From Dehalococcoidia bacterium (GTDB lineage: Bacteria > Chloroflexota > Dehalococcoidia > GIF9 > UBA5629), in the NCBI GenBank assembly GCA_050011565.1, contig JBEKIW010000001.1:234254-266253 (forward strand): a DNA stretch of 32,000 nt. The letters are read 5' to 3'. Position numbers and translations under genes: made by a program. This document shows, in pieces, positions 5,893-20,017 of this stretch (positions are counted from its first letter, which is position 1; the number at the start of each line of letters is the position of its first letter). The notes beneath the pieces were generated by a model. The model was not told the DNA's origin, did not search any database, and saw only the letters and a program-made list of their open reading frames with translations.

Positions 5893-7698
5893 ATGGCCGG
5901 TGGTTATATGGGAAAGGTTTTATTTGTAAATCTGTCTACAGGCGCGATTGAGATAGAGGCACTTGACGAAAAAACTTGCCGCGATTTCATCGGTGGCTAT
6001 GGCTTGGGGGCAAGAATACTATACAGCCGTCAAAAGGCAAAAGTGGCCGCCTTATCCGGAGAGAATATTCTCGGATTTCTCACCGGCCCTCTCACCGGTA
6101 CCCCGGCTCCTACCGGAGCACGGTATGTCGTGGTGGGAAAATCACCTTTAACCGGCACCTGGGGGGATGCCAACTCGGGAGGTGAATTCGGCCCTTACCT
6201 TAAATTCGCCGGCTATGACGGCGTCTTTTTTACCGGCATTTCGGACCGACCGGTCTATCTCTTAATCGATAACGGCAAAGCTGAATTAAAAGACGCCGCT
6301 CACCTGTGGGGTAAAGACACCTATGAAACGGAGAGCATATTGGAGGACGAACACGGCAGTGAAAGTCGTGTCTCCTGCATCGGCCCCTCCGGCGAAAAGC
6401 TGTCGCTCATCTCATGTATTATAAACCAGCGAGGATGTGCTGCCGGACGCTCCGGTTTAGGGGCTGTCATGGGCTCCAAAAGGCTCAAGGCAGTTGTAGC
6501 CCGGGGAAACCAAACCGTCGCTTTAGCCGACAAACAGGCCGTTGACAACTTACGAAAAAAGTATATGGCAGCGTTAAACGATACAAAGTCCGGGGGGCAC
6601 TCATACCGTGAGTCGTTCCACAAGTACGGTACGGCCAGCCATGCCGCCATTTCGGCCCAAAACGGAGATTCGCCGGTTAAAAACTGGGCTGGTATCGGTG
6701 TGGTCGATTTCCCGGATGTCTCCGGGCTCGAGCCTGATGCAGTGATAGCCAACCTTGATAAACATATAGGTTGCTGGCACTGCCCCATCGCCTGCGAGGC
6801 AAGCTTGAAGGAGGGGACCGGCGAGTACAGGTACGTTGCCGGTACACGCCGGCCTGAATACGAGACACTGGCTTCCTTCGGTGCCATGTGTCTTAACAAT
6901 AACACTGAATCCATTGCCATGGCTAACTACATTTGCAATCGATATGGAATAGACACTATCTCTGCCGGTTGTACTATTGCCTTTGCCATCGAATGTTACG
7001 AGAATGGGCTCATTACCAGGAAGGATACCGGAGGTATCGAGCTTACCTGGGGCAACCACCGGGCTATCGTTAGCATGACGGAAAAACTTGCCGGGAGAGA
7101 AGGCTTTGGTGACGTTCTCGCTGACGGAGTCAAACTGGCTGCGGAGAGAATCGGCAGGGGCGCTGAGAAGTATGCGGTGCATATCGGAGGACAGGAGCTG
7201 GGGATGCACGACCCGAAGCTCATACCGCCTATGGTGGGCAACGTTGAATCGGCTTCGGCACGATATCAGATGGACGCCACCCCCGGCCGTCACACGCAGG
7301 GCTTCGGCCCCAGTAGTTTTGGGGCTCACGTTCTCAGTTCGGCCGGGCTTTGCTATTTCGGTAATATGTGGATGCAACTGAAAGACTTCATGAATGCGGT
7401 AACCGGCTGGGGCTATTCCAGGGATGAATTAAATAAAGCCGGTGACAGGATAGCCACCCTGAGGCACGCCTTCAACCTTCGGGAAGGTGTAAACCCTCTC
7501 AAATGGACGGTGCACCCCAGGATAACGGGTGAACCTCCTTTTGAGTCTGGTCCACTGGCTGGCGTAACCGCCGATATTACAGGTCAGATTTACCGGAATC
7601 TTGGTGCTTTGGACTGGGACCGCGTCACAACCAAGCCGGGCAAAAAGAAGCTGCTGTCTCTGGGCCTTAATGACGTGGCCAAAGACCTGTGGCCATAG
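5893..7698 (+). CDS. aor: Aldehyde:ferredoxin oxidoreductase family (tungstopterin/4Fe-4S) enzyme
   Basis: 601 aa with AOR-like N-terminus MAGGYMGKVLFVNLSTG. The CxxCxxxC cluster motif (CWHCPIAC) plus a distal Cys (GLCYFG) are present. RBS AAGGAGG lies 6 nt upstream. Confidence 0.9.
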   Translation: MAGGYMGKVLFVNLSTGAIEIEALDEKTCRDFIGGYGLGARILYSRQKAKVAALSGENILGFLTGPLTGTPAPTGARYVVVGKSPLTGTWGDANSGGEFGPYLKFAGYDGVFFTGISDRPVYLLIDNGKAELKDAAHLWGKDTYETESILEDEHGSESRVSCIGPSGEKLSLISCIINQRGCAAGRSGLGAVMGSKRLKAVVARGNQTVALADKQAVDNLRKKYMAALNDTKSGGHSYRESFHKYGTASHAAISAQNGDSPVKNWAGIGVVDFPDVSGLEPDAVIANLDKHIGCWHCPIACEASLKEGTGEYRYVAGTRRPEYETLASFGAMCLNNNTESIAMANYICNRYGIDTISAGCTIAFAIECYENGLITRKDTGGIELTWGNHRAIVSMTEKLAGREGFGDVLADGVKLAAERIGRGAEKYAVHIGGQELGMHDPKLIPPMVGNVESASARYQMDATPGRHTQGFGPSSFGAHVLSSAGLCYFGNMWMQLKDFMNAVTGWGYSRDELNKAGDRIATLRHAFNLREGVNPLKWTVHPRITGEPPFESGPLAGVTADITGQIYRNLGALDWDRVTTKPGKKKLLSLGLNDVAKDLWP

Positions 7699-12436: not shown

Positions 12437-12498
12437 TAACAAAGGCGAAAAGAAAGAGCCGGCACCTGTTACAGAACAAGTGCCGGCTTTAAATGTGG

Positions 12499-13785
12499 CT
12501 AAGTTTTGAAGGTCAGGGTAAGGATGTCGGCAAGCTCGACTTTGTCACCTTCTCTCAATAAGTACCTGCCTTTTCCCTCGATACTGGACCTGTTCAGTTT
12601 GGTGCCGTTGGTGCTGTTGCGGTCCTCGATATAACATTCTCCATCTTCACAGTCGAATCGTATGTGCTGCCTGGAAATCAGGTCAGCTTTGTCCGGCTTC
12701 ACCAGGGAGCGGAAATCACTTCTGCCCAGAGATCCGGCATTGCCGGATAGGGATAATTGCTCACCGTTCGACAATATAAACTTCGGCCCAGGGCCCGTGT
12801 CGACGGGTGTGGTGGCCGGGGCACCATTTGCAGTCCGTGTAGCGGTAGCCAGATATCCGGCCCGTGCACCGGCATAGGCTGCGGTAGGCCTTCTAACAAA
12901 AAGGACGACGGCCGCCGCGGCGGCTACAGCCAGAAGTCCGAGCAACATGATATACAACATCCCGGAATTGCCCGAGCCGTCGCCGCTCAACCCGCTGGTC
13001 AAGATACTACTTGTTCCCGTATTGGCGACGTTTCCACTGCCGGCTATTGGCGTGCTGCTGGTGGTGTAGGTGGATACGTACGGAGCGACCGTCACGGTGG
13101 TGCTGGCATTCACGCTGCCATCGCTATTGGTAGCCGTAAGTGTATAGGTAGTTGTATAACCAGGACTCAGATTGTATGAGCCAGAACTTGGGACAGACCC
13201 AATCCCGGGGGATAAAGTGACCGTAGTTGCATCGTTCACCGTCCACGTCAGCACAATTCCCTGCCCACTCTGAATGTAAGATGGGTTAGCGGTAAACGAG
13301 TTGATTACCGGCGGACAGTCAATTTGCGGTTGAGGCTGCCGTTGAGGCTGCTGAACTACTACCACGTTCGAACATACGTAATAGGACCACCTATAGTTAC
13401 AAGGCCAGGAACATTCCGGACAACAGCGAAAGTATTGATTAGGCCACGGGGAGCTCCACCTATAGGGTGGTGGTGGTGTAGGTGGGGCAGGCGGCGGCGG
13501 AGGAGGAGGAGGAGGAGGTGGTGGTGGAGGTGGTGGAGGTGGTGGAGGTGGCGGTGGTGGCGGTGCCGATGGTGCAGGTGGTGGAGGAGCAGAAGAGGTA
13601 GAGGTGGCGGTGGCAGTAGCAGTAGCAGTGGCAGTGGCGGAGGAATCGGTGGTGGTGACCGTAGCGGTGGCCGTAGCGGTGGCCGTAGCGGTATCTTCGG
13701 CAGATACCGGTGTGGCCTGGAATACTGGCGCAGAGCATAGTAATAATGCTGCTGCAAGGACTAGGATTGCTTTTTTGAAGTTCAT
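12499..13785 (-). CDS. Type-I membrane protein FHA-A: signal peptide, (TA)n/poly-Pro stalk, Cys/Trp/Tyr-rich segment, Ig-like domain, TM helix, cytoplasmic C-terminal FHA domain
   Basis: 428 aa. The signal peptide is MNFKKAILVLAAALLLCSAPVFQATPVSA. There is a run of about 25 consecutive Pro. The Ig-like repeat is PVINSFTANPSYIQSGQGIVLTWTV...TTTYTLTATN. The TM segment MLYIMLLGLLAVAAAAAVVLFV is followed by RR. FHA signature: LGRSDF...ISRQHIRF...DRNSTNGTKLN. RBS AAGGAGG is present. Confidence 0.9.
   Translation of the reverse strand: MNFKKAILVLAAALLLCSAPVFQATPVSAEDTATATATATATVTTTDSSATATATATATATSTSSAPPPPAPSAPPPPPPPPPPPPPPPPPPPPPPPPPAPPTPPPPYRWSSPWPNQYFRCCPECSWPCNYRWSYYVCSNVVVVQQPQRQPQPQIDCPPVINSFTANPSYIQSGQGIVLTWTVNDATTVTLSPGIGSVPSSGSYNLSPGYTTTYTLTATNSDGSVNASTTVTVAPYVSTYTTSSTPIAGSGNVANTGTSSILTSGLSGDGSGNSGMLYIMLLGLLAVAAAAAVVLFVRRPTAAYAGARAGYLATATRTANGAPATTPVDTGPGPKFILSNGEQLSLSGNAGSLGRSDFRSLVKPDKADLISRQHIRFDCEDGECYIEDRNSTNGTKLNRSSIEGKGRYLLREGDKVELADILTLTFKT
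13489..13700 (-). repeat. Low-complexity trinucleotide/hexanucleotide repeat tract inside FHA-A (poly-Pro and Thr-Ala repeats)
   Basis: 13489-13563 is 25 consecutive NGG triplets on the + strand, which are CCN Pro codons on the - strand. 13590-13700 contains GGCAGTAGCAGTAGCAGTGGCAGTGGC and three tandem GTAGCGGTGGCC-like units encoding (TA)n. Confidence 0.9.
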
Positions 13786-13888: not shown

Positions 13889-15490
13889 TCACTCCTTATT
13901 TATATTTTGTTTCTGGAAATTGATGCTAAGTTTGCCGGCAAGCTCAATTACATCGCCGTCAGCCAGCGCATGCCGGCCGGTCCCCTTGATATCCGTACCG
14001 TTGACCCTGGTGCCGTTGGTGCTGCTGCGGTCCTCGATGTAGTACTGGTCGTTTTCGGACCATATGTTGATGTGCTGCCTGGATATGTAAGAGACCTGTG
14101 CACTGGGCATGAAATCCTCAAAGTCACGCCTGCCGAACGACCTGGTATTACCTGCCAGCAGTATATCGTTCCCGCCCGCCAGGGAGAGTTTAGCCGCGGC
14201 GGCCTCTACCACAGGCGTGGTGACTGGCTGTGTATCCGAGGTATTTGTGTCTTCAGTCTGAGTGGCGTGTCCTGCTTGTGTGTCTGCCGCCTGTACCCTG
14301 CGGGCTTTAGCAGGTCTCCTGATAAGCAAAATGGCTATGACTATGACCGTTATGGCCAGCAAGGCTATAAGGCCCCAGAGCAAATAGGGCGGCTGCTCTA
14401 CATTGACCGTTACCGATGTTGACTGCGAAGTACCGTCAATATAGGCAGCGGTCAGGGTGTACGTAGTCGTATTATCCGGCGATACCTGCGTGGTGCCGCT
14501 GATGTCGGCGCTGCCGACGCCGGTGATTAGTACCCGGATTGCCCCGGGGGCATTCCAGTAGAGGGACGTCGACTGCCCCCTCTGTATGGTGGACTGGCTC
14601 ATATTAATGGTGGGCGACACCCTGGGCCTGACCGTTATGGTTGCAGTCGATGAAACAGAGCTGCCCGATTTGCCGTTGGCCGCCAGAGTATAGGTGGTGG
14701 TGGCGGTTGGACTCACCGTAGTAGAGCCGGAAGCGGCGACCGTTCCAACTCCGGGTGATATGCTCACGCTGGCAGCGTTAGTGGTCGTCCAGGTGAGTAT
14801 AGCTGTCTCACCGGCTTCGATAGAAGATTTGTTGGCGCTGAATGAGCTAATCGATGGGGGATTATAAACCGGCGCCGGCGTAAAGTCGGGTATGTCCGGT
14901 GGATAATAACTCCGGATGTAATTGAAGTTCAATAAACGCGTCGACCATGAATACCCGGAAAGGAACCACATCCTCCAGGTGTACCCTCCGGCAGGGTCAA
15001 ACGACTGGGCGGCAAAAGGACCTATTCTCCAGACGCCGGCGTACGGGCGATACCATCTGTAACACAGCCAGTGTCCGTAGGGCGAAGTGCCGTAAGGGTA
15101 GTATTCCCATAGATAGAAATAGCCCGGCCCGTTGAAGGAAACGACCAGATAGATTGCCTCGTTTCCATATAGGTTGCTCAGTGTCTGACCGTAGCTGTTG
15201 ACGAGGTAGGCATTTACCATTGAGCTCGGGATACCGGGTTCCAGGGACAGCGGCGCCATTTGCAGGCTCGGCGAGGTCTGGCTGTATGTTTCCGCTGGCA
15301 CCGGTGGCTCTATAGACTCTCCTCCTTCATCGGGAGGTTGCCATGATTCATCAGGGCTTAATGGCGGAACCGGGTTGTCGTCTGCCCGGACGGGTGAGAT
15401 TTCAGTAATGGCGACTGAGAAAGCCAGGGTGGTGACCAGCAAAGCTATCAAGATTTTTTTCATGTGTGACATTAAACTCCCGAATACCAT
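13889..15490 (-). CDS. Type-I membrane protein FHA-B: signal peptide, W/Y-rich ectodomain, two Ig-like repeats, TM helix, TQ-rich linker, cytoplasmic C-terminal FHA domain
   Basis: 533-aa maximal ORF. The likely start is M7 (15472) or M10 (15463), giving MKKILIALLVTTLAFSVAIT as the signal peptide. The TM segment LLWGLIALLAITVIVIAILLI is followed by RRPAKARR. FHA signature: FGRRDF...ISRQHINI...DRSSTNGTRVN. Confidence 0.9.
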   Translation of the reverse strand: MVFGSLMSHMKKILIALLVTTLAFSVAITEISPVRADDNPVPPLSPDESWQPPDEGGESIEPPVPAETYSQTSPSLQMAPLSLEPGIPSSMVNAYLVNSYGQTLSNLYGNEAIYLVVSFNGPGYFYLWEYYPYGTSPYGHWLCYRWYRPYAGVWRIGPFAAQSFDPAGGYTWRMWFLSGYSWSTRLLNFNYIRSYYPPDIPDFTPAPVYNPPSISSFSANKSSIEAGETAILTWTTTNAASVSISPGVGTVAASGSTTVSPTATTTYTLAANGKSGSSVSSTATITVRPRVSPTINMSQSTIQRGQSTSLYWNAPGAIRVLITGVGSADISGTTQVSPDNTTTYTLTAAYIDGTSQSTSVTVNVEQPPYLLWGLIALLAITVIVIAILLIRRPAKARRVQAADTQAGHATQTEDTNTSDTQPVTTPVVEAAAAKLSLAGGNDILLAGNTRSFGRRDFEDFMPSAQVSYISRQHINIWSENDQYYIEDRSSTNGTRVNGTDIKGTGRHALADGDVIELAGKLSINFQKQNINKE

Positions 15491-15534
15491 ATGTTCTATT
15501 AAGATTAACTATACGTCTGGCGGGAGCAGGCTGC

Positions 15535-15573
15535 TTGACTCTGGGCTGACAGGTCACTGACAGTTACCTGACA
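15535..15573 (+). promoter_or_regulatory. Four direct repeats of (C/T)TGAC(A/T) spaced exactly 11 bp apart; candidate OmpR/PhoB-type operator upstream of FHA-B
   Basis: TTGACT starts at 15535 and CTGACA at 15546, 15557 and 15568. The block lies 21 bp upstream, in the minus-strand sense, of a TATAGT -10-like hexamer (15513..15508). That hexamer has no recognisable -35. Confidence 0.5.
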
Positions 15574-15634
15574 AAATAGAAGACGCAGATAAATTATTAT
15601 TGAGGGGTTAATCTGTGATGGGTTTTCCCAGGGG

Positions 15635-16717
15635 TCAAAGGAGGTGAAACTTTAGATGTACCGCACCGGCCGGTTCTATAATGTCATCGTCATCCAGGCT
15701 GACCGGTCCCTGGCCGCTGATGTCCTTGCCGTTTAGATGGGTGCCGTTGGCGCTGCCCAGGTCCTCGACGTAGAACTGCTCGTCGTCCAATTTAATCTGG
15801 AAATGTCGTCTGGAGATGAGCCCCAGGTCATCCAGGCTTAGCGCTCTGGCGAGGTCACCCCGGCCTATCACTCTGCTCTTGCCGGAAAGCTGAATATCGA
15901 TGCCATTGGGTAAGGTTATTTTTGCCCTGGCGGCTGATGGTAAGGCTGCAGATAGGTCTTTAGTCTTTGCCCCACCTGACGAGGATACACTATCCTGACT
16001 TCTCCTTCGCCTGATATAAATCGGCAGCAGAGCCAGACCGACCACTACGACCAGCAGGCAGGCGCCGAGAACCGGCCGGGTGATAAGTCCAAAGACTGTA
16101 GCGGGGAAGCTAGCTTCTTTGGCAGGGGCTTCGGGTGATGGTGGCGGTACCGGCTCAGCAGGTTTGCCTTTCGAATACGTCCAGTAAACAAGATTATTCT
16201 GTGGAGTATCCGGGTTTCCAGCAGCCCATTGGCCGTCGCTGTAGAACCGAATCCGGTAAATATGTTGTCCCTCCGGTTCGTTATTCGTGGGTGTAAAGGG
16301 GCCAAGCCGCCACAGGCCGCTTTCCAGCAATTGCCATTTGTAGGCTAGCCACTGTCCCTGAAAATCACCGCCAGCCGGAAAGGATTCATATATATAAATC
16401 CACCCGGGCATGTTTATGTCCACGTCCAGGTACCAGTTTTCATTTGCAGTGACCGTGAATTCTTCCTGTCCTGAGGCAGCGATGAAACCAGCTATAAAGT
16501 TAGGAGTCGTATTTTCAGACTGAGACGTAGGTTCCACCAGGACATATTCGACCGGCGGCTTGATTTCAACCTGAGACTGGTCGCCGGCGGGGACATTCGG
16601 TATAGTCGTATTATCAGTTGGCGCTCCCAGCGCCCCGACATATGCCGTCTGGAGGCTCAGCGCTGAAAAAACGCCGAAAATCAAAGTAAAAGTAAGCAAC
16701 AGTAACGCTTTTCTCAT
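15635..16717 (-). CDS. Type-I membrane protein FHA-C: signal peptide, W/Y-rich ectodomain homologous to FHA-B, TM helix, cytoplasmic C-terminal FHA domain
   Basis: 360 aa. The signal peptide is MRKALLLLTFTLIFGVFSALS. The TM segment LGACLLVVVVGLALLPIYI is followed by RRRRS. FHA signature: IGRGDL...ISRRHFQI...DLGSANGTHLN. Its start overlaps the kinase stop by 4 nt (ATGA). Confidence 0.9.
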   Translation of the reverse strand: MRKALLLLTFTLIFGVFSALSLQTAYVGALGAPTDNTTIPNVPAGDQSQVEIKPPVEYVLVEPTSQSENTTPNFIAGFIAASGQEEFTVTANENWYLDVDINMPGWIYIYESFPAGGDFQGQWLAYKWQLLESGLWRLGPFTPTNNEPEGQHIYRIRFYSDGQWAAGNPDTPQNNLVYWTYSKGKPAEPVPPPSPEAPAKEASFPATVFGLITRPVLGACLLVVVVGLALLPIYIRRRRSQDSVSSSGGAKTKDLSAALPSAARAKITLPNGIDIQLSGKSRVIGRGDLARALSLDDLGLISRRHFQIKLDDEQFYVEDLGSANGTHLNGKDISGQGPVSLDDDDIIEPAGAVHLKFHLL

Positions 16718-17739
16718 TTCCGTGACTTGACCTCGACAGACTTTACCGGATAGCCGTCCGCTGACGATAAAGCGGCACGAAAAGCTTGTGCGTCAGCAAA
16801 CCTGTGGTCGGCGGAGAACAGTATGCCCTGTGCCAGGCATTTTGCCGTGCGCTTGGATATGCCGCAGGAAATAAGGTAATCGGCAACAGCAGTGGCTTCA
16901 GCGTAAGAACGCGGCCAGTTGGACTTGAACAAGTCCAGGCAAATCTCGTTCGGCTGCTTGAGTGTGAGGAGATATATACAGGTCTGTGCCAGGCCGAAGA
17001 GGTCGCAGCGCTGGTCGCAGTCCCCGCCAATGAACAATTCGGGAATATCGAAACCCTTGTTTGTTATCTTGGTGAACGGGTCATGGCCTGCCTTATCTTT
17101 GCCTGAACCATTCAAGTTTTTCGCCGTGCCGAAATCGATAAGCTTGACCGTGCCGTCGCTGCTCAACATGATGTTCTTTGGGTTAATATCCCTGTGAATT
17201 ACGCCAGCTTTGTGAATATAGGAAAGAGCATCCAGCAGCTGGCAAGCCCAGGCGACGACCTGTGGCTCCTGAAAAGGAGTTCTCGGCGATGATGCCATTA
17301 GGGTCTCTCCATTCACGTACTCAACGACCAGGTGAAATTCGCCCTTATAGTAGAAATTGTCGACGTATTTAACGATGCCGGTATGTTTCAGCCGCTTCAG
17401 GTAGCTGGCTTCCAGCATCAGCTTGTCCAGGTACACGTTATCCATCGTCGTGCCCCGGCGCGGTGTCTTGATAATGCACGCCCTGCCTGTTCTGCGCTCC
17501 CGGGCGAACCATATAGTCGCCATGCCACCCTGTTTATGAGGCGGTGCCATCAGTTCATAGCGACTGTTAACGACGTATATGTTATTACCCGCCTGGGCAG
17601 GTATCTGTGTCTTCCCGTGGTTTGAACGTGAGCTGTGGCTCTTACGCTTACGAAGGGCAATCAATATAGCCACGGCTACTATCAGAACCGTATAGACCAG
17701 GACCATTAACAAAACGATATCATCTGTAGGCCACATCAT
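16714..17739 (-). CDS. Membrane-anchored Hanks-type Ser/Thr protein kinase without ectodomain
   Basis: 341 aa. About 7 N-terminal residues precede the TM helix IVLLMVLVYTVLIVAVAILIAL, which is followed by RKRK. Kinase motifs are the CIIK lysine, catalytic loop HRDINPKN, DFG (LIDFGTAK) and an IPE (APE-like) motif. It has ATGA overlaps with both neighbours. Confidence 0.9.
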   Translation of the reverse strand: MMWPTDDIVLLMVLVYTVLIVAVAILIALRKRKSHSSRSNHGKTQIPAQAGNNIYVVNSRYELMAPPHKQGGMATIWFARERRTGRACIIKTPRRGTTMDNVYLDKLMLEASYLKRLKHTGIVKYVDNFYYKGEFHLVVEYVNGETLMASSPRTPFQEPQVVAWACQLLDALSYIHKAGVIHRDINPKNIMLSSDGTVKLIDFGTAKNLNGSGKDKAGHDPFTKITNKGFDIPELFIGGDCDQRCDLFGLAQTCIYLLTLKQPNEICLDLFKSNWPRSYAEATAVADYLISCGISKRTAKCLAQGILFSADHRFADAQAFRAALSSADGYPVKSVEVKSRK

Positions 17740-18554
17740 ATTCTCCTGATGCTGGTCTGGGCTGTAATCATAGCCTGCCAGGATGGAAGGTTGTCGGGTT
17801 TCACCACTATTATCGATATATTATCCGGTCCGCCCGCCAGGTTAGCCTGAGCCGTCAGGTCAATGCAGGCCTGGTTGGGATTGGGAGAACCGGTAACGGT
17901 CTCCGATATCTCAGGTGAAGGCAACACGCCGCACAGACCGTCGGAACAGAGGAGGATATTGTCACCGGCGTATAGTTTTACATGAAACAGGTCCGGGACA
18001 ACGGTCCGGGCATAACCAAGTACGCGCGTTATCTCGTTCTTGCGCGGGTGGTTCCAGGCTTGTTCCGGTGTGATAGTTCCTGCATCCACGAGCTGTTGGA
18101 CTACAGAATGGTCTTTGGTGATCTGGATGGTCTCCCGTCCGTTGATTACATAGCACCTGGAATCGCCTATATGGGCGACATATAGGTCCTCACCTACAAC
18201 AAGTGCAGCGGTCAGGGTAGTACCCATGCCTTTCAACTCACCCTCGGCGGCAGAATCCAGAACCTTGCGGTTAGCCTTCTTGAAGGCAGCAGCCAAAATA
18301 GACAGGGGTGGAGTCGGGGACTGGGCGAGAAGACCGGAAATACACTCTGCATGGAGGGTCCTGGTGGCGAGGTCGCTGGCAATTTCACCGGCACTGTGCC
18401 CGCCCATACCGTCTGCCACGGCAAAGAGGCCAGCGGAGATTGTTCCCAGGTGGGTCCTGAGATCGAAGCTGGTGCATAAAACGCTATCTTCGTTGAGGTC
18501 TCTTAGCAGACCTGTGTCCCAGCTATAACCTATTTCCAATCGGTCCTCCGGCAT
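17736..18554 (-). CDS. PP2C-family Ser/Thr protein phosphatase
   Basis: 272 aa. The PP2C motifs are NEDS, FAVADGMGGHSAGEIAS, LLCSDGL and GGPDNISIIVV. Confidence 0.92.
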   Translation of the reverse strand: MPEDRLEIGYSWDTGLLRDLNEDSVLCTSFDLRTHLGTISAGLFAVADGMGGHSAGEIASDLATRTLHAECISGLLAQSPTPPLSILAAAFKKANRKVLDSAAEGELKGMGTTLTAALVVGEDLYVAHIGDSRCYVINGRETIQITKDHSVVQQLVDAGTITPEQAWNHPRKNEITRVLGYARTVVPDLFHVKLYAGDNILLCSDGLCGVLPSPEISETVTGSPNPNQACIDLTAQANLAGGPDNISIIVVKPDNLPSWQAMITAQTSIRRI

Positions 18555-18561
18555 TTCTGCT

Positions 18562-19158
18562 TCATTTCGACTCTTTCAGCAATTTGAAAGTCAGTGTAAG
18601 TTCCGGCTGACCGGCCAGTTCAATCTTATCGCCGTCTTGGAGAGCCTTCTTTCTTTTGTCATAGATATCAATTCCGTTAAGCCTGGTATGGTTGGTGCTG
18701 CCCTTACCGTCGCGTCCGTAGTCCTTCAAGTAGTATTTGCCTCTATCACAGGTAATCAAAATATGCTGCCTGGAAACTCTCATCAGCAACTCTGGTGATA
18801 ATGTGCCGTTAAAATCGCCGCGCTCTATGAACACAGGCTCACCGGTGAGGGTGATTTCACCACCGCCCGGCATCATCACCTTAGCTTTCGGCGCCGAAGA
18901 CCGCAGTGCGCCCCGTTTCTGCCTGACTGGCCGCTTGCTTATTTTTGTTTCCTCTACATCGGCGAAATATTTACCGCAGGTGTAACAGAAAAAACTGGCG
19001 GCATTGTTTGTGCTCCGGCACCTGGGGCAGATGATTTTGCGTTCAGGCCCGTCCGGCGCTATGGCGGCAAGAGGCAGCCCGCATTTGCGACAGACTTTTT
19101 CGTGCGGCTCATTCTTTGTATGGCATGCCCGACAAAGCACTTTGGCTCGTTTAGTCAT
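18562..19158 (-). CDS. Double zinc-ribbon + FHA domain protein
   Basis: The start is taken at MTKRAKV (19158); the alternative MLKPRTAKIM is at 19185. There are two CxxC...CxxC ribbons (CRACHTKNEPHEKVCRKC and CPRCRSTNNAASFFCYTC). The C-terminal FHA has variant signature residues (IERGDF...VSRQHILI...GSTNHTRLN). The 410-aa ORF extension is rejected because it overlaps the divergent gene and the promoter region. Confidence 0.85.
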   Translation of the reverse strand: MTKRAKVLCRACHTKNEPHEKVCRKCGLPLAAIAPDGPERKIICPRCRSTNNAASFFCYTCGKYFADVEETKISKRPVRQKRGALRSSAPKAKVMMPGGGEITLTGEPVFIERGDFNGTLSPELLMRVSRQHILITCDRGKYYLKDYGRDGKGSTNHTRLNGIDIYDKRKKALQDGDKIELAGQPELTLTFKLLKESK

Positions 19159-19213
19159 TATTTTAGCAGTCCGTGGTTTTAACATCAGTGTAATTGATTG
19201 ATGAGGACTTTGC

Positions 19214-19242
19214 TTGACAGCTTTCTGACAAATACCTAATAT
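19214..19242 (+). promoter_or_regulatory. Sigma70-like promoter of the FHA-wHTH gene, overlapped by two 11-bp-phased TGACA repeats
   Basis: TTGACA (19214-19219), a 17-nt spacer, then TAATAT (19237-19242). TGACA starts at 19215 and 19226. The string TGACAGctttCTGACAAAT is about 15/19 identical to TGACAGttacCTGACAAAA at 15558-15576. A perfect minus-strand TATAAT at 19291..19286 may serve the divergent operon. Confidence 0.55.
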
Positions 19243-19333
19243 AAATCTGATATACTCATGGTTACGGGACGATTGTGACGTACGTATTATACTACAGGGA
19301 GCGAATACGGGCCCAAACGAATGGAGGTAAGGC

Positions 19334-20017
19334 GTGGCTTCTCTAATTGTGAAGAGGGGTAATGCGGAGGATGTCGGTAAAATCTTCACTTTGAACGACT
19401 CGTCTACCGTGGTGGGCCGCCTGACTTCGCAGAATAAACCTGATATAGAATTGGGCGCCGATGTTATTTCCAGACGGCACCTGGAAATCCTGCTGCAGGA
19501 TGGCAGGTACTGGCTGAAAGACCTGGGCAGCACCAACGGCACCATGCTAAATGATGACAGGATAATTCCTGGCAATCTATACGAACTCAAGCATAACAGC
19601 AAGATCGGGCTTGGGGTGGAAGGAACTTCAGCGCAAACAGTTCTGCAGTTTAAGGAATCCGAAGATACTAACATAATGCACGGGAAAGAACCCCCGGCTG
19701 GAAAGCACGGCACGTTCCCTGCAGTGGCATGGCTGAAAATCGACGAGGGGAAAAAGGAAGCTGTGGTAGACGGCAAACAGCAGAAGCTATCCAAAAAGGA
19801 GTATGAGCTGATACGGTTGCTCTATAGAAATGCCGGAAATATATGCTCGCGTGACGAGATAATTGAAGCCGTATGGCCCGAAAGCCAGGACCCTTCGGCT
19901 ATATCCGATGCCACCATCGACCAGCTAATTCACCGGCTGCGTGAAAAAGTGGAACCCGAACCTGCCAGCCCCTCGCGTATCATCAGCAAAAAAGCATTCG
20001 GTTATATGCTGGTGTAA
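19334..20017 (+). CDS. FHA domain / OmpR-PhoB-type winged-helix DNA-binding fusion protein
   Basis: 227 aa with a GTG start and RBS GGAGG 7 nt upstream. N-terminal FHA signature: VGRLTS...ISRRHLEI...DLGSTNGTMLN. The C-terminal Trans_reg_C-like region is LSKKEYELIRLLYRNAGNICSRDEIIEAVW...IDQLIHRLREKVEP...FGYML. Confidence 0.88.
   Translation: MASLIVKRGNAEDVGKIFTLNDSSTVVGRLTSQNKPDIELGADVISRRHLEILLQDGRYWLKDLGSTNGTMLNDDRIIPGNLYELKHNSKIGLGVEGTSAQTVLQFKESEDTNIMHGKEPPAGKHGTFPAVAWLKIDEGKKEAVVDGKQQKLSKKEYELIRLLYRNAGNICSRDEIIEAVWPESQDPSAISDATIDQLIHRLREKVEPEPASPSRIISKKAFGYMLV

Follow-up and report, generated by a model that had tools for sequence, protein, structure and literature searches.

Operators of the WalR/PhoP type are direct repeats of the form hexamer-N5-hexamer with units of the TGTNAN type, and in PhoB promoters the proximal half-site lies about 10 bp from the -10 element. 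Bacterial Hanks-type Ser/Thr kinases seldom have a known dedicated route to transcription, the textbook exception being EmbR, a protein of about 390 amino acids (aa). The site of PhoB in Escherichia coli consists of two 7-bp direct repeats of CTGTCAT with a 4-bp spacer, whose TGTCA tract lies in the major groove (PMC4447250), and CTGTCAT is the best-conserved PHO-box motif of E. coli, with a consensus that differs between phyla (PMC4415409). In the operators of SARPs, direct repeats with a phase of 11 or 22 bp overlap the -35 element, 8 bp separate the 3' repeat from the -10 element and region 4 of the sigma factor is contacted (PMC10936776). The FHA domain of EmbR mediates both the interaction with the kinase PknH and the phosphorylation by it, thereby enhancing transcription (PMC9239209). 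Here we analyse a 32-kb stretch of DNA from an uncultured Dehalococcoidia bacterium (this whole stretch is the window referred to below), in which two arrays of 11-bp-phased TGACA repeats accompany the gene of a regulator that combines an FHA domain with a winged helix-turn-helix domain (FHA-wHTH). The full explanation that we consider reasonably probable is that both arrays are operators of this FHA-wHTH protein, which would activate two minus-strand promoters and repress the gene of the regulator itself. The literature searched contains nothing on regulators with an N-terminal FHA domain and an OmpR-type domain, or on their operator. The features on which the argument turns are:

15535..15578, plus strand: array B, four 11-bp units in front of FHA-B (Tandem Repeats Finder, matrix, orthologue conservation)
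15532..15534, plus strand: invariant TGC just before the first unit of array B (orthologue alignment; also at the paralogous arrays)
15508..15513, minus strand: predicted -10 element TATAGT for the promoter of FHA-B; gap of 21 bp to array B, without a -35
19214..19257, plus strand: array R, four phased units in front of the regulator gene (matrix, orthologue conservation)
19187..19192, minus strand: predicted -10 element TACACT (TAGACT in most orthologues) for the divergent operon led by DZR-FHA; gap of 21 bp to array R, no -35
19334..20017, plus strand: regulator FHA-wHTH, 227 aa, divergent from the row of minus-strand genes
13889..15463, minus strand: FHA-B, proposed target; a signal peptide and an Ig-like region outside the cell, a single transmembrane helix, and an FHA domain in the cytoplasm
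15635..19158, minus strand: operon DZR-FHA-PP2C-kinase-FHA-C (DZR, double zinc ribbon), with synteny kept in all loci; proposed second target

Comparison with described systems

The likeness to the Pho box comprises a winged helix of the OmpR/PhoB type and head-to-tail half-sites with an 11-bp period. The pooled unit of the arrays reads [C/T]TGACA[A/G]nTnn on the plus strand, and its minus-strand reading, which is the direction of the target genes, is CTGTCAG followed by 4 bp. This corresponds to the 7-bp repeat and 4-bp spacer of the Pho box, with CTGTCAG in place of CTGTCAT of E. coli, a resemblance that an earlier note on this DNA had overlooked. As in the Pho box, the TGTCA core runs along the direction of transcription and stands upstream of a -10 element without a -35, and as in PhoB the regulator's own gene carries a site. 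Other properties set the arrays apart. The spacers are not AT-rich: matrix positions 7-10 are mixed, with position 8 alone biased towards T (0.63), and the 4-bp spacers of the window include GGTC and GGGC. An FHA domain is found instead of the receiver domain, and the arrays consist of three or four units compared with two in PhoB. Their distance to the -10 element is 21 bp in 66 of the 68 site instances from orthologous loci rather than about 10 bp, which corresponds to the same helical face one turn further. The PhoB-type placement advanced in the earlier note thus holds with regard to repeats upstream of a -10 element that lacks a -35, but not with regard to the gap. Furthermore, at the regulator's own gene the array has the opposite orientation and overlaps the core promoter, an arrangement that points to repression and not activation.

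Mycobacterium tuberculosis EmbR and the SARPs, for example AfsR of Streptomyces, share with the regulator an OmpR-type DNA-binding domain, and EmbR is likewise tied to a Ser/Thr kinase. However, the FHA domain is N-terminal here and the wHTH domain C-terminal, which is the reverse of the EmbR architecture (PMC9239209), and the lineage, Dehalococcoidia, is a different one. Because of this reversed domain order and the absence of a BTAD match at E <= 0.001 in the Pfam scan, the protein is not of the SARP/EmbR type. Its operators share the 11-bp phasing of SARP sites, but their 21-bp distance to the -10 element departs from the 8 bp seen there; they would thus work like a Pho or SARP box while falling outside the positional definitions of both. 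Hexamer-N5-hexamer repeats are also common to the WalR/PhoP-type operators, and the DNA-binding domains of WalR, VicR and YycF are among the best matches of the regulator in the PDB. Those proteins, in contrast, are response regulators with a receiver domain, which usually bind two half-sites at another position relative to the promoter. The DNA-recognition logic of the locus is therefore familiar and follows OmpR/PhoB rules, whereas its sensory coupling and its bidirectional promoter design are not described in the literature searched.

Two conserved arrays of phased half-sites

The sequence agrees with the phased hexamers that the earlier note had listed. On the plus strand, TTGACT at 15535-15540 is followed by CTGACA at 15546-15551, 15557-15562 and 15568-15573, spaced by exactly 11 bp, and TTGACA at 19214-19219 is followed in the same phase by CTGACA at 19225-19230. 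The complete units of array B are TTGACTCTGGG (15535), CTGACAGGTCA (15546), CTGACAGTTAC (15557) and CTGACAAAATA (15568); those of array R are TTGACAGCTTT (19214), CTGACAAATAC (19225), CTAATATAAAT (19236) and CTGATATACTC (19247). Array R had been described with the first two of these, which are present as claimed, but it is longer and comprises four units: CTAATA at 19236 overlaps a TAATAT hexamer, the -10 element of the promoter-like site discussed below, and CTGATA at 19247 corresponds to CTGACA in most orthologues. The string TGACAG-N4-CTGACAAA, reported as common to both sites, is 15/18 identical between array B and array R. Tandem Repeats Finder detects a period-11 array at 15546-15573. 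The pattern YTGACW-N5-YTGACW has four matches in the window, which fall at array B and array R only, compared with a mean of 0.06 in dinucleotide-preserving shuffles, none of which (0/100) reached four. A position weight matrix was built from 179 orthologous units and scored as two adjacent units; it yields 25-26 bits at both arrays, the best of 50 shuffles attaining 17.7, and no other position in the window exceeds 10 bits.

Conservation of the arrays in orthologous intergenic regions, the check that the earlier note had called for, is evident. A genome scan with the regulator alignment provided 37 orthologous loci from metagenome-assembled genomes (MAGs) of Dehalococcoidia, whose regulators are 59-91% identical. 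Both arrays are kept in about 40 orthologous loci of this class, array B in 31 and array R in 37. Phased TGAC units are located about 100-180 bp upstream of the regulator, on its strand, in every locus with enough flank, and a second array is located 3.6-5.9 kb upstream of it in all loci that encode FHA-B. The order is throughout FHA-A, FHA-B, array, FHA-C, kinase, PP2C, DZR-FHA, array, regulator. When 29 and 31 non-redundant loci are aligned without gaps from the first unit, the mean information per column is 1.75 bits for array R and 1.55 bits for array B, compared with 0.3-0.4 in the flanking intergenic DNA. With slashes between the units, the consensus is aaaAgTcTA-N18-TGC/TTGACAGCTaT/CTGACaAATAC/CTAATATaAAT/CTGAcAa for array R and TAAaTATACgc..ccgggag..g.cTGC/TTGACtgc.GG/CTgACAGgTca/CTGACAGTTtt/CTGACAAAA at the FHA-B site. 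This conservation represents a clear phylogenetic footprint. Other matches to the array within the orthologous loci, each of which covers up to about 16.7 kb, are few and all imperfect. The scarcity of further arrays in the surrounding DNA agrees with the main reading of the earlier note; unrelated bacteria also carry phased CTGACA arrays (see below).

Array B is linked to FHA-B. It adjoins this gene in L021, L022, L026 and L035 despite inserts of 0.7-2.3 kb between FHA-C and FHA-B, which consist of CARDB surface-protein genes, and synteny mapping showed that L014 and L025, which are without FHA-B, are also without array B. No -10 element on the plus strand downstream of any array B unit is conserved among the orthologues. 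These observations bear on a second reading contained in the earlier note, i.e., a plus-strand promoter at 15568 (CTGACA-16-TAAATT) from which antisense RNA would run into FHA-C. A consensus scan does return CTGACA-16-TAAATT as well as CTGACA-18-AATTAT, each with 9/12 matches, but promoter-like sites of this kind are no commoner than in shuffles (7 vs 6.5). Moreover, everything 3' of the last unit is unconserved with 0.32 bits per column, TAAATT is absent from most orthologues, and the array stays with FHA-B and not with the end of FHA-C where the two are separated. The antisense promoter was rejected because the downstream sequence is unconserved and the array follows FHA-B; its probability is close to negligible.

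Geometry of the predicted minus-strand promoters

Each array has a TAnnnT hexamer beside it on the opposite strand. The gap between this hexamer and the T of TTGAC is exactly 21 bp in 31/31 loci at site B (TATATT, TATAGT, TATACT), and at site R (TAGACT, TACACT, TAAACT and similar) it is 21 bp in 35 of the 37 loci and 22 bp in the other two, against a background of 1.3% per position for TAnnnT. Conservation within the hexamer falls on T1, A2, A4 and T6, as one would expect for a -10 element. At the place of a -35, given a 17-bp spacer, the sequence is always AAGCAn and takes in the invariant TGC before the array; in the window, the FHA-B promoter reads AAGCAG there, in line with the minus-strand TATAGT (15513..15508) without a -35 that had been recognised 21 bp from the array. 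The geometry shared by the two arrays is a new result of this analysis. Transcription on the minus strand is predicted to start near 15501 and 19180. The arrays span about -34 to -72 of these predicted promoters, and their position together with the lack of a -35 is the arrangement expected of an activator-dependent promoter.

It is somewhat likely, on this evidence, that the arrays activate the two minus-strand promoters, namely those of FHA-B(-FHA-A) and of the DZR-FHA-PP2C-kinase-FHA-C operon. The genes that accompany FHA-B are:

12499..13785, minus strand: FHA-A, with a membrane topology like that of FHA-B
15635-16717, minus strand: FHA-C, last gene of the DZR-FHA-PP2C-kinase-FHA-C operon (Pfam)
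16714-17739, minus strand: Ser/Thr kinase (Pfam)
17736-18554, minus strand: PP2C phosphatase (Pfam)
18562-19158, minus strand: DZR-FHA, double zinc ribbon plus FHA, first gene of the operon divergent from the regulator (Pfam)

FHA-A, FHA-B and FHA-C all combine a signal peptide and an extracellular region with a single membrane helix and with an FHA domain in the cytoplasm. The matrix scan of the window gives no array for FHA-A itself, and a strong terminator-like hairpin is located 3' of it at 12457-12488; co-transcription with FHA-B is therefore plausible and indeed probable. FHA-B and possibly FHA-A had been named as targets before, and both remain plausible, the latter via co-transcription, but the divergent operon with TACACT (19192..19187) at 21 bp from array R had been overlooked.

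The fixed distance to the -10 element also bears on a reading in which array B acts as RNA: transcription reading through from FHA-C to FHA-B would yield a repeat that, for example, binds a protein or has a structural role, perhaps together with a CUCCCG element. No terminator is predicted in the interval between FHA-C and FHA-B, folding of the minus-strand RNA is somewhat more stable than that of shuffles (z = -2.25), and CUCCCG pairs with the Shine-Dalgarno sequence CGGGAG: in the minimum-free-energy fold of the window, CGGGAG at 15521-15526 on the plus strand, which is CUCCCG in the minus-strand RNA, is paired with the ribosome-binding site of FHA-B at 15477-15482. In the orthologues, the pairing of this helix does not improve on column shuffles (75% vs 73.7%), although it reaches at most 57% when the helix is slid. 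Against an RNA element stand the position of array R, which is upstream of the two transcription starts predicted on that side, the absence of any Rfam match between 12000 and 20500 at E <= 1, and the failure of RNAalifold to give a consensus structure; the 21-bp DNA geometry would, moreover, be left unexplained. We consider a role as RNA most improbable. With regard to the element itself, CGGGAG is moderately conserved in the spacer between array B and the -10 element, and several orthologues show shifted or compensated pairings. CUCCCG would be present in a read-through transcript from FHA-C, and transcripts from the internal promoter would be without it.

The putative promoter of the regulator gene

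Two plus-strand features are found between array R and the regulator:

19214..19242, plus strand: promoter-like P1 of the regulator gene, composed of TTGACA (19214-19219), a 17-bp spacer and TAATAT (19237-19242), wholly inside array R
19285..19293, plus strand: TATTATACT, a second motif that is conserved, some 40 nt upstream of the regulator's start codon

P1, whose overlap with the 19.2-kb repeats had been noticed earlier, matches the promoter consensus in 10/12 positions and is the best promoter-like site in an 8-kb neighbourhood. It is present in 37/37 genome-scan loci with array R, and the third unit of the array is always CTAATAT there and not CTGACA, a constancy that suggests selection for operator and promoter at once. 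P1 is absent in the metagenome locus L087 (regulator 68% identical), where positions 6926-6966 hold the units TTGACG, CTGACA, CTGACA and CTGACA, the third of them as a full CTGACAC; TAATAT is missing and the opposite-strand -10 element lies at a gap of 22 bp. With four units retained but no TAATAT, it is thus the array and not the plus-strand promoter that represents the constant element.

This locus is informative about a further explanation, according to which the repeats are promoter architecture without a dedicated regulator, i.e., reiterated -35-like hexamers, overlapping sigma-70 promoters or UP-like elements. TTGACA is indeed the -35 consensus and forms a near-consensus promoter with TAATAT at 19.2 kb, but L087 keeps the four units of site R in the absence of TAATAT, and site B is devoid of a conserved plus-strand -10 element after any of its units. 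Conservation extends to the presence of three to four units, to two spacer bases (G/A at position 7, T at position 9) and to the TGC in front, and the units, seen along the flanking genes, have the sequence TGTCAG, which is not a -35. Promoter architecture as the sole explanation is thus very unlikely.

As an operator of the FHA-wHTH protein, array R would cover the -35, the spacer, the -10 and the start region of P1, so that autorepression is the effect to be expected. We put the chances that array R represses the regulator's own promoter at about even. Two observations weigh against it, namely the complete lack of TAATAT in L087 and the second motif, which resembles a -10 element and could be part of the main regulator promoter. 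In the orthologues L001-L037 this motif takes the form TATATTATACT(G/A)CAA; its distance from the array varies from 4 to 45 bp, and no -35 is conserved with it. TATTATACT may be the -10 element of a second, array-independent promoter or an element of the 5' untranslated region, and given a possible second promoter at 19285-19293 the strength of the autoregulation is uncertain.

The FHA-wHTH regulator

The FHA domain of the regulator (PF00498, 62 bits) comprises residues 25-94. Its residues G28, R29, S46, R47, H49, N68, G69 and T70 are invariant in 20 homologues, and with the motifs GR, SxxH and NG(T) it has the signature of a predicted phospho-threonine-binding domain. The wHTH domain at residues 148-226 matches Trans_reg_C (PF00486) with 69 bits, compared with a cut-off of 26.2, and covers profile positions 2-77 of 77. 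Among the open reading frames (ORFs) of at least 80 aa in the window that were scanned against Pfam, the regulator is the only Trans_reg_C protein, as had been surmised for its OmpR-type domain. Sequence matches of the C-terminal domain in the PDB are effector domains of the OmpR family, the best ones being those of HP1043-like, RegX3, WalR, RstA, KdpE and other family members, and in an alignment of the recognition helix with PhoB, T194, R201 and R203 appear to be kept. These sequence characters place the regulator in the OmpR/PhoB winged-helix superfamily. The Pfam scan revealed no Response_reg match, and without a receiver domain the protein is not a response regulator. The AlphaFold2 model is only moderate, with a predicted local distance difference test (pLDDT) score of 64.8, and depicts the wHTH domain as a four-strand sheet with three helices and a C-terminal hairpin. 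The linker at residues 110-129 has a pLDDT below 50 and is probably flexible. Thr112 of the linker, in the context KESEDT-N-I, is invariant in close homologues and kept in most distant family members. The family with both FHA and Trans_reg_C comprises 5359 proteins at E <= 1e-10, including many full-length representatives at 50% clustering, and is distributed mostly among the Dehalococcoidia.

Probable assignment of the arrays to the regulator

Comparable arrays accompany paralogous regulators. In L185 (regulator 48% identical) one array precedes the regulator gene and another a minus-strand FHA gene, in L186 (49%) they are found between the regulator and a divergent kinase operon as well as before an internal FHA gene, and in L187 (51%) the array precedes a CARDB/PKD gene that is located just upstream of the regulator. 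All five arrays of these loci show GC before TTGACA, the 11-bp phasing and a hexamer (TAAAAT, TAGAAT or TATTCT) at exactly 21 bp on the strand of the target, and the TGTCA reading is always co-directional with the target gene. The sites of L189 are weak and their spacing is ambiguous. In L192, whose regulator is only 36% identical and has the recognition helix SPETIDQDVHRIR, the 11-bp autocorrelation upstream of the gene is 0.40 compared with about 0.25; these repeats may be a variant of the operator, but a single case proves nothing. The repeats of L192, located between 2366 and 2660, are partly different and read GCTTAATTT, GCTACATTT and GCTACATTA, followed by ATGACA-N5-CTGACA.

The conservation of the arrays, their linkage to FHA-B and the paralogous arrays support the reading as OmpR-type operators, together with the autoregulation and the control of FHA-B that the earlier note had suggested from the sequence. 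With high confidence, we regard the arrays as functional operators of the OmpR type. That the adjacent FHA-wHTH protein is the one that binds both of them is likely, judging from the sequence comparisons, and we hold this with good though lesser confidence.

Several observations weigh against this assignment. The regulator of L191 is 46% identical, and no array is present anywhere in its locus. The array of L187 is located 2.3 kb upstream, and none is found at its own regulator gene. Among the orthologues, neither the recognition helix nor the unit varies to any extent, which leaves no covariation between them to support the assignment, and the adjacent regulator is assigned by co-localisation. 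The activation of the minus-strand promoters is argued by analogy, given a gap of 21 bp that is unlike the 10 bp of PhoB and the 8 bp of the SARPs (PMC10936776). In addition, phased CTGACA arrays occur in unrelated bacteria, some of them beside ordinary OmpR-type response regulators, which implies that the half-site is of a type widespread in the OmpR family, not unique to the FHA-wHTH family, and that another OmpR-type protein could bind it. A metagenome scan for three CTGACA-N5 units illustrates this point: 4/120 matches listed represent orthologous loci, and the rest are mostly unrelated arrays and satellites with periods of 11 or 33 bp. One of the unrelated phased CTGACA arrays adjoins the gene of a CusR-like response regulator.

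The corresponding alternative is that the arrays are genuine operators of the OmpR/PhoB type that are bound by a regulator encoded elsewhere, for example a canonical PhoB-like protein, which would place the locus under phosphate or another two-component signal. Its strongest argument is the unit itself, since CTGTCAG is 6/7 identical to the Pho-box half-site CTGTCAT of E. coli (PMC4447250, PMC4415409), and the arrays beside ordinary response-regulator genes in other bacteria point in the same direction. However, the arrays of the Dehalococcoidia track FHA-wHTH genes in at least four gene contexts, including the regulator's own promoter. For PhoB in particular, the PHO-box consensus varies among phyla (PMC4415409), the 4-bp spacers of the arrays are not AT-rich, and their distance to the -10 element is unlike that of PhoB promoters. 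Binding by a regulator encoded elsewhere is hence unlikely.

The unrelated arrays deserve a description of their own. Metagenome contigs from gut, rumen and other sources carry three phased CTGACA units in Bacteroidetes-like intergenic regions of the form ..tgcaaaggta..N..CTGACATTTGTCTGACAAT... Among the matches listed, these are L066, L071, L073, L083-L085, L095, L096, L101-L103, L111, L114, L118, L129, L132, L133, L135 and others. One near-identical array sequence recurs in many gut-type metagenome contigs, several of which are labelled human gut. The Bacteroidetes-like arrays presumably represent another operator class of the OmpR family.

Proposed mechanism and implications

In the mechanism that we propose for the FHA-wHTH protein, each operator would consist of three or four head-to-tail half-sites with an 11-bp period, on which the winged-helix domains of the adjacent regulator bind in tandem. 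At about -34 to -72, the bound protein would recruit RNA polymerase in the manner of a class II or PhoB-like activator and drive the promoters of FHA-B(-FHA-A) and of the DZR-FHA-PP2C-kinase-FHA-C operon, and an occupied array R would at the same time block TTGACA-17-TAATAT of the regulator. The FHA domain would replace the receiver domain of a response regulator, so that phospho-threonine provided by the kinase of the locus, possibly on linker Thr112, controls oligomerisation on the array. By analogy with EmbR, the kinase and the PP2C phosphatase of the locus probably set the activity of the regulator. A more tentative proposal, which we consider rather doubtful, is that the FHA domain of the next protomer binds phosphorylated Thr112, and that the resulting head-to-tail filament, matched to the three or four units of the array, acts as a bidirectional switch and as a Ser/Thr-kinase counterpart of two-component systems. 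Such a filament would switch on both the kinase/phosphatase/FHA operon and the FHA receptors of the membrane while switching off the regulator gene, thus coupling positive and negative feedback, and a large family of thousands of proteins would have a predictable operator code.

The analysis provides the uncharacterised FHA-OmpR family with a concrete conserved operator, a promoter geometry and a target set, the proposed targets being the regulator's kinase/phosphatase operon and the membrane-spanning FHA proteins. The organisms are uncultured; with an operator that is defined by sequence, the system can be tested in vitro or in a heterologous host, and regulons can be predicted in MAGs.

Further observations on the locus

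Genes for surface proteins with CARDB, PKD or beta-propeller domains are repeatedly inserted in or beside the orthologous and paralogous loci (L021 2157-4391, L026 2221-2796, L014 345-3548, L187 5032-6753). They may belong to the regulon; the surface-protein gene of L187 is located directly downstream of an array. The N-terminus of FHA-A is unusual and of low complexity: alternating Thr-Ala repeats and then about 30 prolines in a row lead up to the Ig-like segment. DZR-FHA may resemble the archaeal repressor ArnA, which is a zinc-ribbon-plus-FHA protein as well. Elsewhere in the window, an ORF of 497 aa at 8480-9973 matches the ORC-CDC6-like family PF24389 with 37.6 bits in a bacterial context.

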